A DNA stretch of 39,875 bases from a virus, in UHGV virus genome UHGV-0140636; one strand, 5' to 3'. This document shows positions 26,915 to 39,711 of this stretch, piece by piece. The notes under the pieces are model-generated. The model did no database searches. It saw nothing but the letters and a program-made list of their open reading frames with translations, and was not told where the DNA came from. The stretch's first letter is position 1. Every line of letters starts with the position of its first letter. Position numbers and translations under genes: made by a program.

Positions 26915-27858
26915 GCAATCCCCCTGTCTGCAAACTTCCCTTCCCGAACTCCCGTTAACGAATCTTCCCTCAGCAGGTAATCAAAATCTGCCGTCCATCC
27001 CGTGTCGTTGTCTCCGAAGTAAAACGGCTTGGCCTGATGTACAAACGCCCTGACATACGCTCTGAAACCGTCCACGTTTGGCGTTTTCAGTTGCGGGATG
27101 ATTTTCTTCAGGCGGCGTTTGCGTTTCTCGTTGACTGCAACAGCGTGTGGCAGTCTGTCACCGACTTCGGTGTTGTAGGCGTTCAGGAAGGATTCGTAGT
27201 CGATTCGTTCTGCCTTGCGACGTTCAGGTTTAACCTGCCCATCGCCTCCCCCATTGGGGGGTAGGGGGGTATTATTTATATTCTTGTTAATACCTTCTTG
27301 TTCATGATGTGCGGTTTTTTGTGCGGCATCATGTGCGCTTTCATGTGCGGCATGTGCGCTGAAAGCCGCGCCATTACTGTCTTCGTCATGTGCGGCATCA
27401 TGTGCGGTTGTTTGTGCGGCATCATGTGCGGGTGAATTGTCCATTTTTTGAGCGTATTCATGGTAATTTGTGATGGTGATCACACGACCTTTTTGCTTCT
27501 CTCCATCAATGGAGATCATCCCCTCTTTCACAAAAACCTGAAGCATCCGCTCAACCTGATCACGGCTTGCCGGCTTGCCATGCCTGTCGCATAACTGAAG
27601 ACCTAAATCAGCTGCTGTCACAACCAGTTGACCGGGTTGCAGATGCCATTCATGACCTTTGAAATTCGCTTTGTATGGCTTTCTGGCGGCATTCAGGAGA
27701 AGGTTTTCCCACAGGGTGCGAAGATAAACATCTTTCGCCCATGACTGTTTCAGAATGCTCCGGTACAACGGAATGTAACCAGTTTTCTGGTTCTCCATCC
27801 TGTTGCTCCTGCGCTCGTGTGCGGCGCTGAAATCGTAGATTTTTGCTGTATTGCTCAT
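26911..27858 (-). CDS. gp18: Replication initiator (O-like, P22 gp18 type) containing ori
   Basis: N-terminus [10 protein letters not shown] like lambda O; internal iteron-encoded AHDAAQ repeats. Confidence 0.8.
27300..27432. repeat. Origin iterons (CATCATGTGCGG-type repeats, 5 or more copies) flanked by AT-rich tracts
   Basis: Directly visible repeats inside initiator gene. Confidence 0.75.
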
Positions 27859-36463: not shown

Positions 36464-36740
36464 CCTGCAACTTGCCGTCAAAGGTGAATACTTCGATGCC
36501 ATGATTCGCGGAGAGAAAACGGAAGAGTATCGCTTGTGTAATGACTACTGGAATAAGCGAATTATGTTCCGGGAGTATGACCGCCTGATTATCACAAAGG
36601 GATATCCGAAGCGCGACGATTCCAGCCGAAGAATTGATGTTCCGTATGACGGATATGAAATCAAGATAATCACGCATCCGCACTTCGGTGATAAACCGGT
36701 AAAGGTGTTCGCGATAAAGGTAAATATCGGCAATGAATAA
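36456..36740 (+). CDS. ASCH-domain-like protein
   Basis: 94 aa. Confidence 0.45.
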   Translation: MANLQLAVKGEYFDAMIRGEKTEEYRLCNDYWNKRIMFREYDRLIITKGYPKRDDSSRRIDVPYDGYEIKIITHPHFGDKPVKVFAIKVNIGNE

Positions 36741-36813
36741 CAATCCTCGCACTCGCGGGGATTTCTTTTATCTGAACTCGCTACTGCGAGTTTTGTTTTA
36801 TGGAGATGATAAA

Positions 36814-36981
36814 TGCACTTCCGAGTTACAGGTGAATGGAATGGAGAACCATTCAACAGAGTTATCGAAGCAGAGAACATCAATGACTGCTATGACCACT
36901 GGATGCTGTGGGCGCAGATAGCACATGCAGACGTAACCAATATTCGAATTGAAGAACTGAAAGAACATCAAGCCGCCTGAT
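36814..36981 (+). CDS. Small hypothetical protein (55 aa)
   Basis: GGAG RBS, followed by terminator. Confidence 0.4.
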
Positions 36982-36987
36982 GGCGGT
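36961..36987 (+). terminator. Intrinsic terminator
   Basis: CCGCC-TGAT-GGCGG followed by TTTTTTATT. Confidence 0.7.
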
Positions 36988-37037
36988 TTTTTATTGCCTG
37001 ATTTGCAGGTTCGATTCCCTATTCGGAGATAGCACTC

Positions 37038-37238
37038 ATGCAACACGAACTACAACCTGATTCACTGGTTGATTTGAAATTCATCATGGCCGATACTGGC
37101 TTCGGTAAAACCTTCATCTATGACCGGATTAAGTCCGGCGACCTGCCTAAAGCCAAAGTTATCCACGGGCGAGCAAGATGGTTATATCGTGACCATTGTG
37201 AATTCAAAAATAAGCTCTTAAGCCGCGCCAATGGGTAA
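37038..37238 (+). CDS. xis: Excisionase / recombination directionality factor (TorI/AlpA-like)
   Basis: 66 aa MQHELQPDSLVDLKFIMADTGFGKTFIYDRIKSGDLPKAKVIHGRARWLY, helix-turn-helix; matches E. coli TorI as recalled. Confidence 0.75.
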   Translation: MQHELQPDSLVDLKFIMADTGFGKTFIYDRIKSGDLPKAKVIHGRARWLYRDHCEFKNKLLSRANG

Positions 37239-37487
37239 AATAGCGGGTAAAATATTTCTCACACCTAAAAAACACCATTCCAATCAATCCCCTGCCGCTT
37301 CAAGTAGATGTCTGCAGGGGACACCATTTATCAGTTCGCTCCCATCCGTACCAGTCCGCAAAATCCCCTGAATATCAAGCCTTCCGTAGATTCACAGTTC
37401 GTAATGGTTCGCGTCAGATCGTTGACAGCCGCACTCCATGACGGGTAAAAAGTGGATAAAATAATTTTACCCACCGGATTTTTACCC
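37233..37487. other. attP: attP region: core matching tRNA-Arg 3' end (37312-37326) flanked by GGGTAAAA/TTTTACCC arm-type repeats
   Basis: CTGCAGGGGACACCA equals the 3' end incl. CCA of argW as recalled; 8-mer repeats at 37233, 37246, 37443, 37466, 37480. Confidence 0.6.
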
Positions 37488-38645
37488 ATGCTCACCGTTA
37501 AGCAGATTGAAGCAGCAAAGCCGAAAGAAAAACCATACCGCCTTCTCGATGGTAATGGCCTGTACCTTTATGTTCCTGTATCCGGGAAAAAGGTATGGCA
37601 GCTTCGCTACAAGATTGACGGTAAGGAGAAAATCCTGACCGTCGGAAAATATCCGCTTATGACTTTGCAGGAGGCAAGAGATAAAGCATGGACCGCGAGG
37701 AAAGACATCTCGGTTGGCATCGATCCGGTAAAAGCGAAAAAGGCTTCGTCTAACAACAATTCCTTTAGTGCGATTTACAAGGAATGGTACGAGCACAAGA
37801 AGCAAGTCTGGTCAGTAGGGTATGCGACTGAACTTGCAAAAATGTTTGATGACGACATTTTACCTATCATCGGCGGCCTTGAAATTCAGGATATTGAGCC
37901 GATGCAACTGCTGGAAGTAATCCGTAGATTTGAAGATCGCGGTGCAATGGAGCGAGCCAACAAAGCCCGCAGAAGATGCGGCGAGGTTTTCCGTTACGCT
38001 ATTGTCACTGGTAGGGCTAAATATAACCCGGCACCTGACCTTGCTGACGCCATGAAGGGATACCGCAAGAAGAACTTCCCATTTTTACCTGCCGACCAGA
38101 TCCCGGCATTCAACAAAGCACTTGCAACATTTTCAGGAAGTATCGTATCGCTCATTGCGACCAAAGTTTTACGCTACACAGCCCTAAGAACAAAAGAGCT
38201 TCGTTCCATGCTATGGAAGAACGTCGATTTTGAAAACAGGATTATCACCATCGACGCCAGTGTGATGAAGGGACGCAAAATTCATGTTGTCCCGATGTCA
38301 GACCAGGTGGTTGAACTTCTCACTACACTAAGCTCAATCACTAAACCAGTATCAGAGTTTGTTTTTTCCGGGCGCAACGATAAGAAGAAGCCAATCTGCG
38401 AGAACGCGGTGCTACTTGTGATCAAACAAATCGGCTATGAAGGTCTGGAAAGCGGTCACGGATTCAGGCATGAATTCAGCACGATTATGAACGAGCACGA
38501 ATGGCCTGCCGACGCCATTGAAGTGCAACTGGCACATGCCAACGGCGGATCTGTACGTGGAATTTACAACCATGCTCAGTATCTCGATAAGCGCAGAGAA
38601 ATGATGCAATGGTGGGCGGACTGGCTTGATGAAAAGGTAGAGTGA
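37488..38645 (+). CDS. int: Tyrosine integrase, P4/IntS type
   Basis: N-terminal arm-binding-like domain MLTVKQIEAAKPKEKPYRLLDGNGLYLYVPVSGKKVWQLRY; C-terminal catalytic HxxR...Y region; alternative upstream ATG 37452 lies within repeat region. Confidence 0.85.
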   Translation: MLTVKQIEAAKPKEKPYRLLDGNGLYLYVPVSGKKVWQLRYKIDGKEKILTVGKYPLMTLQEARDKAWTARKDISVGIDPVKAKKASSNNNSFSAIYKEWYEHKKQVWSVGYATELAKMFDDDILPIIGGLEIQDIEPMQLLEVIRRFEDRGAMERANKARRRCGEVFRYAIVTGRAKYNPAPDLADAMKGYRKKNFPFLPADQIPAFNKALATFSGSIVSLIATKVLRYTALRTKELRSMLWKNVDFENRIITIDASVMKGRKIHVVPMSDQVVELLTTLSSITKPVSEFVFSGRNDKKKPICENAVLLVIKQIGYEGLESGHGFRHEFSTIMNEHEWPADAIEVQLAHANGGSVRGIYNHAQYLDKRREMMQWWADWLDEKVE

Positions 38646-38798: not shown

Positions 38799-38840
38799 GC
38801 CGCAGTATTCTGCCATGACAAGTTGCTGCGGCTTTTATGT
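38799..38840 (+). terminator. Candidate terminator downstream of int
   Basis: GCCGCAG...CTGCGGC stem with large loop followed by TTTTAT. Confidence 0.4.
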
Positions 38841-39134
38841 TGAACGGATCAACAGCCAGACCAGCAGACACGCCACCACTGGCACAGAAAAATCCATAAG
38901 GCTTGCCAAATCCCACACGCGCGGATCAAAACCGCCCCACCACGGCATATTCATACGCTTGCCATGTCCGAACATTTCAATCCAGCGATATTCTGCCTGG
39001 GTGTGTTCACGCGCAATGAAGAACGTACAACCGGCTATCGCTCCGTAAGCCCAGTTCCCGGTAAAAAGACCAATCAGTAGCTGCGCAGCCACAGCACAAA
39101 GTGCATGAAGTAAGGGTGTTATATCCATTTTCAT
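38835..39134 (-). CDS. Small hydrophobic membrane protein, unknown function
   Basis: About 97-100 aa, two or three hydrophobic segments; start ATG 39134 or 39128 (AGGA upstream of the latter). Confidence 0.5.
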   Translation of the reverse strand: MKMDITPLLHALCAVAAQLLIGLFTGNWAYGAIAGCTFFIAREHTQAEYRWIEMFGHGKRMNMPWWGGFDPRVWDLASLMDFSVPVVACLLVWLLIRST

Positions 39135-39170
39135 CCTACCCAATAAAACGGGGCGCTCGGCCCCTTAATA

Positions 39171-39350
39171 TTATTTAGACGCAAGCGCCGCCTCAATTGC
39201 AGATAACATTTGTCTTAATTCTGCGTTTTCTTCTTCCAGTGCTGTTATTCTGTCGTCTGACTCTCTGGCTACCTGAACAAGCAAGCCAGTAACACCAGAA
39301 TAATCTACAGTGTAATACCGTTCACCTTCTTTACCTAAAGGATGACAAAA
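39171..39350 (-). pseudogene. Orphan 3' gene fragment without start codon
   Basis: 59 codons ending ...YTVDYSGVTGLLVQVARESDDRITALEEENAELRQMLSAIEAALASK, preceded by in-frame stop; followed by hairpin GGGGC-CGAGC-GCCCC plus GTTTTATT on the minus strand. Confidence 0.35.
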
Positions 39351-39711
39351 TCACATAAATAATTTAAAAATCATAGCATTAGATTACTTAATGATTAAAT
39401 AATAGACTGCAAAACGCGACAAAACACAACATATCCAGTCACTATGAATCAACTACTTAGATGGTATTAGTGACCTGAGACAGAGCATTAGCGCAAGGTG
39501 ATTTTTTGTCCTCTTGCGCTAATTTTTTGCCACACAACAGTCACATCTTCAAAAAATATGCAAAGCTTAGGGTTAATCGGCGGATGATTTTTGTCCATTC
39601 ATTTTGCGCGGGTAAGTTATGTGGTGGGTTATCGGCATCCTTTCCGTGGTTGTCATCGTGGCGACGCTTGTCGTTAGGTCACTTCTGCAGGATATTGATA
39701 ATGACTATTAG

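Follow-up and report, generated by a model that had tools for sequence, protein, structure and literature searches.

The argW attachment site of a complete P22-like phage genome and a candidate control element upstream of torI

Two short pieces of sequence resembling the 3′ part of a tRNA gene lie on either side of a TorI-like excisionase gene in UHGV virus genome UHGV-0140636, which was analyzed here as a single window of 39,875 nucleotides. Do these pieces form the split tRNA end of a phage attachment site, as an original prediction from the DNA had it, and if not, what is the piece that lies beyond the excisionase gene? The region is almost certainly the attP of an integration module of the KplE1 (CPS-53)/HK620/Sf6 type in an unintegrated genome. 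Earlier work has already described such an attP with its tRNA-derived core, the order xis-attP-int, and the arm-type repeats, and the attP itself adds nothing new; the box upstream of the excisionase gene is the one new detail. The best explanation for the locus as a whole, which we regard as likely, is this known argW attP in a complete, unintegrated P22-like (Lederbergvirus) genome together with a T-loop box that would serve as a cis operator.

The attP core and its match to argW

The string CTGCAGGGGACACCA, which had been assigned to the acceptor end of argW, occurs exactly once in the window, at positions 37312–37326. Alignment with argW of E. coli K-12 (NC_000913) confirmed this assignment: the string equals nt 61–75 of the gene, its last 15 nt. 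The att core proper, CTGCAGGGGACACCAT (37312–37327, plus strand), matches the argW 3′ end, is the predicted site of strand exchange, and has the same sequence as the published 16-nt core of KplE1 (PMC2951348). It also has the sequence of the 17-bp att site of phage Kapi1, which is shared with Sf6 and HK620 (PMC8787464). The GenBank records of HK620 and Sf6 annotate the attP core at the homologous position, between hkaC/gene 18 and int. By arithmetic, about 2e-5 occurrences of an exact 16-mer are expected in 2 x 39,875 positions, and shuffled sequences gave 0.05 matches with 2 mismatches allowed.

The sequences on either side of the core establish which kind of att site this is. The 73 nt from the xis stop codon to the core are identical to the phage side of K-12 attR at 71 of 73 positions, and the 161 nt from the core to the int ATG are identical to the phage side of K-12 attL in 157 of 162 aligned columns. 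The att flanks bear no resemblance to the host sides of the K-12 sites, with an identity of only ~50%, as unrelated sequences give in an optimized global alignment. The phage sides of attR and attL meet here at one core, which makes the site attP, and the earlier assignment to attP rather than attL or attR is upheld. Most of the 80 IMG/VR loci with an identical TorI run from the core into various host flanks, the form expected of attR; only a few continue past the core as TTTATCAGTTCGCTCC, like the window.

Both genes adjacent to the core, xis and int, lie on the same strand as had been described. The xis gene (37038–37238, plus strand) is torI; its product, a 66-residue recombination directionality factor (RDF), is identical to K-12 TorI at 66/66 positions. 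RefSeq names of near-identical loci support this assignment, and the Pfam HTH_17 match in TorI is below threshold only. The int gene (37488–38645, plus strand) is intS and encodes a heterobivalent tyrosine integrase of 385 residues (384/385 identical to K-12 IntS) with the Pfam domains Arm-DNA-bind_3 (PF13356), Phage_int_M (PF22022), and Phage_integrase (PF00589). Every defining feature of the KplE1/HK620/Sf6-type module that can be assessed from sequence is present, among them an IntS-type integrase with N-terminal arm-binding and tyrosine recombinase domains, a TorI-type winged-helix RDF, and an attP, with its core at 37312, between the RDF gene and an integrase gene of the same direction. 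This position of attP places the two genes at opposite ends of the prophage, and in the K-12 prophage intS is indeed found at attL and torI at attR. The arrangement around the TorI-like xis had been called unusual; the order xis-attP-int is in fact the published hallmark of the KplE1/HK620/Sf6/Kapi1 module (PMC2951348, PMC8787464). A 46-residue ORF (37231–37371, plus strand), whose homologues are hkaB in HK620 and gene 17 in Sf6, spans the P arm and the att core and is unlikely to be a real gene, since integration would cut it.

Left of the core, the attP of relatives reads TTCGATGTA and then TGCAGGGGAC, which is the argW T loop with three mismatches, where the window has GTAGATGTC; the E. coli lineage has thus diverged further from the argW T loop than its relatives. 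In loci L012, L013, L015, L136, L200, and others, the stretch left of the core in attP/attR takes the form (G)TTCGATGT(A/T)TGCAGGGGAC, corresponding to argW from the T loop through the acceptor end with just a 3-nt mismatch. Given that the T loop-to-acceptor sequence of these relatives mismatches by 3 nt only, the ancestral block of identity with argW was probably longer than today's.

Integrase and TorI sites around the core

The 8-mer GGGTAAAA (read as TTTTACCC for copies on the opposite strand) is present five times in the whole 39.9-kb window, and all five copies fall within 37233–37487, starting at 37233, 37245, and 37443 on the plus strand and at 37465 and 37480 on the minus strand. Shuffles gave an expectation of 0.7 copies and none of 100 reached five. 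The statement that five such 8-mers flank the core agrees with what we counted. Because the published anatomy of the module is present in full, we presume these copies to be arm-type sites, two in the P arm and three in the P′ arm. The P-arm copies form a direct pair on the plus strand (37233–37240 and 37245–37252), presumably bound by the arm-binding part of IntS, and the first overlaps the torI stop codon. The spaced repeat GGGTAAA-N5-GGGTAAA downstream of xis is kept in distant relatives. The putative IntS sites of the P′ arm are GGGTAAAA at 37443–37450 (plus strand) and TTTTACCC at 37465–37472 and 37480–37487, the last of which abuts the int ATG.

TorI sites carry GTTCG, GTCCG, or GATCG; sites I1 and I2 are separated by 12 nt, and I3–I5, which mediate TorI repression of intS, are three sites separated by 2 nt (PMC2951348). 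Both published spacings recur in the window on the plus strand. The I1–I2 block consists of CAGTTCGC (37332–37339) and CAGTCCGC (37352–37359), 12 nt apart, and the I3–I5 block (37395–37422) consists of CAGTTCGT, TGGTTCGC, and CAGATCGT, which start at 37395, 37405, and 37415 and are each 2 nt apart. The promoter PintS (plus strand) has its −35 element TTGACA at 37422–37427 and its −10 element TAAAAA at 37446–37451, where it overlaps arm-type site P′1. The published PintS likewise has TTGACA and TAaAAa, with P′1 overlapping the −10 box (PMC2951348). A sigma-70 promoter scan of 36700–37600 returned one weak site (37438–37465), a yield that shuffled sequence equals, and did not pick up the published PintS; the scan is therefore uninformative for PtorI, the torI promoter.

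In the KplE1 system, IntS and IHF recombine the core with argW, TorI bound at I1–I5 directs excision, and IntS and TorI repress PintS (PMC2951348, PMC3509656). We carry this mechanism over to the window by its identity to the experimentally studied KplE1 and HK620 substrates. IntS would bind the five arm-type sites and exchange strands within the 16-nt core, while TorI would bind the five GTTCG-type sites of the P′ arm, leading to excision, and together with IntS would repress PintS. Given that the core is identical to the argW 3′ end, integration would regenerate argW and leave intS at attL and torI at attR. From these correspondences we infer that the phage integrates at argW, and is excised from it, by means of IntS, with TorI required in addition for excision.

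The closest known system is KplE1 itself, with an identical TorI, an IntS identical at 384/385 positions, the same 16-nt core and arm-type repeats, the same five TorI sites in two blocks, a PintS overlapping the P′ arm, and a T-arm-like box upstream of torI. KplE1 is, however, a defective 10-kb integrated remnant whose site is split into attL and attR, whereas the window holds the joined attP in a complete 39.9-kb phage. The KplE1 module, comprising intS, torI, and attL/attR at argW, is reportedly the subject of work by Panis et al. in 2007 and 2010. HK620, Shigella phage Sf6, and E. coli phage Kapi1 are P22-like phages that integrate at argW, as predicted for the phage in the window, and share the order xis (hkaC/gene 18)-attP-int with ~97–98% nucleotide identity over the module. 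The attP of Kapi1 lies between int and xis and is identical to those of Sf6, HK620, and KplE1 (PMC8787464). In keeping with a mosaic relationship, the three phages differ from the window in the genes upstream of the module and in those between int and tailspike; the window has a relic of a lambda P arm and lacks gtr/oac genes after int.

Elements with P4-type integrases carry the 3′ end of their target tRNA gene, so that integration restores the gene (Reiter 1989, as cited in PMC8787464). The window likewise carries a tRNA 3′ end, but its contiguous identity extends over only 16–17 nt, and it has an additional, separate T-loop copy upstream of the RDF gene. Like the attP/Int/Xis system of lambda, it combines a heterobivalent tyrosine integrase with both arm-type and core-type sites, and its RDF sites lie in a single arm. 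The int and xis genes of lambda, however, are neighbors on the same side of attP and share a transcript. In the window attP separates the two genes, int is driven by its own autoregulated promoter within the P′ arm, and a tRNA gene supplies the core with its 3′ end (PMC2951348).

One further observation concerns the K-12 attL (L003, 561–679), where 31 bp separate TorI site I1 from the GTTCG in the T loop of argW. The successive spacings of the T loop, I1, I2, I3, I4, and I5 in this attL are 31, 20, 43, 10, and 10 bp, all near whole helical turns, and because of this phasing the T loop might act as a sixth TorI contact in attL.

The state of the genome

When the last 1.5 kb and the first 3 kb of the window are joined, they form an uninterrupted tailspike ORF of 690 residues with a P22-type N-terminus. 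Since the ends close inside this ORF, the window is one complete, circularly closed genome cut within the tailspike gene. Its ORFs run in the order ejection proteins, coat, portal, terminase, lysis, nin, replication, immunity, early-left genes, xis, and int, which agrees with the annotated related phage in L002 and is P22-like throughout. The nearest records are the mosaic E. coli P22-like phages Gally, HZ41, Kapi1, CUS-3, and IME10, with HF4s nearest in the att region. ARAGORN found no tRNA gene in the whole 39,875-nt window, and Rfam gave no tRNA match in 36800–37600, even at E<=10. The only tRNA-like fragments, as judged by comparison with argW, are 16 nt and 15 nt long, and they do not amount to a tRNA that could form a cloverleaf. 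The intact tailspike ORF across the ends and the lack of a tRNA gene both support the original prediction that the sequence is not an integrated prophage.

The same sequence would, however, also result if the window were a single repeat of a tandem (head-to-tail) prophage array, or of a concatemer, within an assembled chromosome. In E. coli, one chromosome assembly (L002; NZ_CP075374.1, 1539183–1580033) does contain a related phage repeated head to tail, with the torI-attP-intS joint intact, and the contiguous joint is present in 14 E. coli genomes. As an intact joint also occurs inside such repeats, attP alone is no proof of a free genome. Against an array, the window spans precisely one genome and its ends meet within one gene, and attL, attR, and host sequence are all absent from it, so that we consider this origin improbable. 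An excised circle, or headful-packaged virion DNA once assembled, would be expected to close on itself in this way over precisely one genome and to lack host DNA. Related phages in E. coli assemblies are found as separate circular records of ~39 kb, and such records account for others of the 14 genomes with the contiguous joint, whereas at least one of the 14 is the head-to-tail repeat. We therefore keep to the reading of the window as a free, complete temperate phage, which should form lysogens at argW. The 40.8-kb stretch in L002 has portal and terminase genes at both ends and many frameshifted genes; it may be either a tandem lysogen or an assembly artefact.

The T-arm-like box upstream of torI

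The second tRNA-like piece, TTGCAGGTTCGATTCC, also occurs exactly once in the window, at 37003–37018 on the plus strand. It corresponds to argW nt 46–61, the stretch directly 5′ of the core in argW and hence the left half of attB, and lies ~29 nt upstream of the xis ATG. The original prediction gave the correct string and placed it correctly upstream of xis; the interval it named, 36992–37007, is 11 nt too far to the left. CTGCAGGGGACACCA and TTGCAGGTTCGATTCC have a single C in common and between them cover the final 30 nt of argW (nt 46–75), but the notion that attP carries them as a split tRNA 3′ end does not hold. The T-arm piece is 294 nt upstream of the core, beyond xis, and outside every att feature annotated in HK620 and Sf6, and it is conserved separately as a box. 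We infer that it does not belong to the crossover site. As a copy of the left attB half, it stands apart from the one that attP itself carries and is the more faithful of the two.

We compared the 16-mer with argW only, and its central 11 nt, GGTTCGATTCC, are generic T-loop sequence; glyT presumably shares GGTTCGATTCCC. Given this generic center, the assignment of the 16-mer to argW rests on its 5′ TTGCA and on argW being the target of the phage. Covariation between box and target tRNA was also considered; argW is the target in all the relatives that were found, with the core TGCAGGGGAC or a close variant.

The box is set in what appears to be a control region. An intrinsic-terminator-like hairpin with a T run (36970–36993, plus strand; stem 36970–36989, 8 pairs) ends the upstream early-left gene (36813–36980) just before the xis control region, and a hairpin of this kind also precedes torI in most E. 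coli relatives. It is followed by TTGC-N5-TTGC (36994–37006, plus strand), whose homologue in HK620 is annotated as the cII-binding site of the "phage integration" promoter pI (AF335538). Downstream of the box, GGAG at 37025–37028 (plus strand) reads as the xis/torI Shine-Dalgarno sequence; GGAG(A/T) is present at equal spacing in most of nine aligned lineages, with the Serratia lineage deviating.

TorI homologues and their loci were gathered from species-representative genomes and viral contigs. A scan of viral contigs with the TorI alignment returned 100%-identical E. coli loci only, and divergent homologues used as queries gave the others. The TTGCAGGTTCGATTCC 16-mer is also found upstream of torI in K-12 KplE1 and in almost all of 80 E. 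coli loci. Within it, GGTTCGATT (37008–37016) is invariant in the nine aligned lineages, which include Enterobacter, Citrobacter, Serratia, Pantoea, Edwardsiella, and a Hafnia-type lineage. In the same nine lineages, third-codon positions of xis are just 48–71% identical to the window and the non-coding flanks cannot be aligned. Across genera, the box upstream of xis takes the form (C)AGGTTCGATT(C/T)C.

A wider survey covered 241 loci, which fell into 33 upstream-sequence groups that are not phylogenetically independent. GTTCGAT is present upstream of xis on the sense strand in 18 of the 33 groups, which represent several enterobacterial genera, where chance would give ~0.003 per group; none of the groups has it on the antisense strand. 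Its distance to the xis ATG is mostly 26–29 nt and exactly 29 nt in 11 of 20 occurrences; the remaining occurrences, at 35 and 42 nt, are in part the upstream members of tandem pairs. Two loci (L138, L139) carry two tandem boxes, CAGGTTCGATTCCCGT CAGGTTCGATTCCCAT, with a period of 16 nt (~555–600), a third (L141, ~555–600) has the same arrangement with a degenerate second copy, and a fourth (L135, ~560–600) has the tandem GTTCGATTCCCGC GTTCGATTACC with a period of 14 nt. In L136 and L137 the box reads CAGTTCGATTTCC. No box was found in the Klebsiella type, in which xis overlaps an upstream traR-like gene, or in Cronobacter, Mixta, Proteus, Arsenophonus, and some Pantoea, together ~45% of the upstream-sequence groups.

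This pattern suggests that the box is under purifying selection. Because its strand and position are fixed, it occurs in tandem copies, and no RNA fold accompanies it, the box appears to behave like a protein-binding site. It probably helps to control xis/torI, and our tentative proposal, which we hold at slightly less than even confidence, is that it is a conserved cis element and specifically a protein operator governing torI expression. Two features of the survey temper this proposal: the ~45% of groups without a box indicate that it is dispensable, and the constant distance between box and ATG could reflect mere common descent.

Could the box instead act at the level of RNA, as a T-arm mimic in the torI 5′ UTR that forms an mRNA-stabilizing hairpin or engages a tRNA-processing or tRNA-modifying enzyme? 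It always lies on the sense strand at a fixed distance from the Shine-Dalgarno sequence, and stems can be drawn in some lineages: ACAGG-TTCGATTC-CCTGT in Edwardsiella and Pantoea stewartii, and CAGG-TTCGATT-CCTG in Serratia. RNAalifold, however, found 0 consensus pairs across the nine lineages. The 3′ half of the stem is unconserved, E. coli, Citrobacter, and Enterobacter can pair at 2–3 positions only, and L136, L137, and L135 lack the first G of the stem. An RNA-level role is thus very improbable. RNA structure was rejected as the main explanation on the strength of the RNAalifold result, with Rfam at E<=10 returning only sub-threshold sRNA noise.

The neighboring TTGC repeat offers another reading, in which TTGC-N5-TTGC is the cII site of a pI promoter and the remainder of the 16-mer is its spacer. 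This is precisely where the GenBank annotations of both HK620 and Sf6 have a cII site and a "phage integration" promoter. In lambda, a canonical cII site consists of TTGC-N6-TTGC with its repeats on either side of a poor −35 element. In the window the spacing is N5 (36994–37006) rather than N6, which departs from the pI/pRE-type definition, and the first TTGC is TTAC in K-12 and in ~18 of 80 (~22%) E. coli loci. Serratia, Pantoea, Edwardsiella, and the Hafnia-type lineage keep the box while lacking the TTGC repeat; it is the supposed spacer, not the repeats, that is conserved. A promoter at this position would also transcribe xis and int together, the wrong product for integration. We consider this reading unlikely as an account of the locus, and the spacing, the polymorphism, and the missing conservation of the repeats argue against a cII site as the reason for conservation of the box.

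A third possibility is historical. The ancestral attP may have carried a longer contiguous 3′ segment of argW, from T loop to CCA, that was split when mosaic recombination brought in torI and the present P arm, by insertion or exchange, leaving the box as a functionless remnant. Such an event would explain why the two pieces tile argW nt 46–75 exactly, why the attP of relatives still has the T loop with three mismatches beside the core, and why lineages keep different extra nucleotides of argW (a 5′ TTGCA in E. coli and a 3′ CCTG in Serratia and Pantoea). The lambda P-arm relic, a clear scar of another att site in the window, indicates that att scars persist. A neutral remnant, however, would not have stayed unchanged over 9 nt while synonymous sites and flanks diverged among the nine lineages, nor would it hold a fixed distance and a single strand in 18 of 33 groups or occur in tandem duplicates. 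Moreover, arm-type sites required for recombination lie within the supposed insertion. A functionless scar is therefore unlikely, though slightly less so than the cII reading; it explains the origin of the box, not its conservation.

If the box is an operator, as we tentatively propose, the candidate proteins are the core-binding domain of IntS and TorI itself. RDFs commonly regulate transcription. IntS must recognize the sequence of the box as the B side of attB, and the box matches the left half of attB at 10/10 positions (GTTCGATTCC), compared with ~6/8 for the C side of the relatives' attP and 5–6/8 for the TorI 8-mers. IntS bound to the arm sites that overlap the torI stop codon might loop to the box, ~225 bp away, and such a loop could block torI expression while integration is wanted. 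TorI may bind the box since it might also recognize the argW T loop in attL, phased 31 bp from I1. The TorI recognition pentamer GTTCG is at the center of the invariant 9-mer GGTTCGATT, but the box 8-mer AGGTTCGA fits the TorI consensus CAGTTCGY at 5–6 of 8 positions only. Binding to the box would in either case set the level of the excisionase, which is the switch for excision. Two points weigh against an operator: an isolated core-type half-site would be a weak target for IntS, and the spacing of the tandem copies, 14 or 16 nt, does not correspond to full helical turns. That the box is a pseudo-attB half-site turned operator, at which IntS or TorI sets the excisionase level, is a possibility we advance with more reserve than the general operator proposal.

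In the literature covered, no description of the box was found; Panis 2007 JBC/2010 Virology, Menouni 2013 PNAS, Clark 2001, and Casjens 2004 may contain one. PtorI has been called "non-characterized," and RDF expression has been named as the remaining control point of excision (PMC2951348). The box is a concrete and cheaply testable candidate for this control point, although a modest lead. If the proposal is correct, the direction of recombination would be coupled to the very sequence that the phage targets, and the box would be the control element that PtorI has so far lacked, in a module distributed among Enterobacterales.

Several minor observations accompany these results. In two relatives (L206 and L214/L220), GTTCGAT was seen by eye ~250–300 nt downstream of the att core, shortly upstream of apparent start codons. 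With so few cases, its presence near neighboring genes downstream of attR may be chance. On the minus strand of the window, 39118–39130 is a 13-nt exact match to the D-loop region of argW (nt 13–25), at the start of a 102-residue ORF (38835–39143, minus strand) with no Pfam match. We set this match aside; ~0.08 such matches are expected by chance, and it is probably a coincidence.

Also on the minus strand, 39360–39545 is a relic of the P arm of a lambda-type attP, without the core, P′ arm, or int of lambda. Near-identity to lambda 27530–27645 extends over about 115 nt, including the annotated Int arm sites "int 1" and "int 2," and the similarity then decays. The relic has the look of a scar left when the IntS/TorI module took the place of a former lambda-type integration module. 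Beside it, at ~39175–39345 (minus strand), lies a reading frame ending, as read by eye, in "...EENAELRQMLSAIEAALASK" and a stop codon; its closest phage matches are annotated as "tail fiber protein," and it looks like a truncated C-terminal fragment of a tail fiber.
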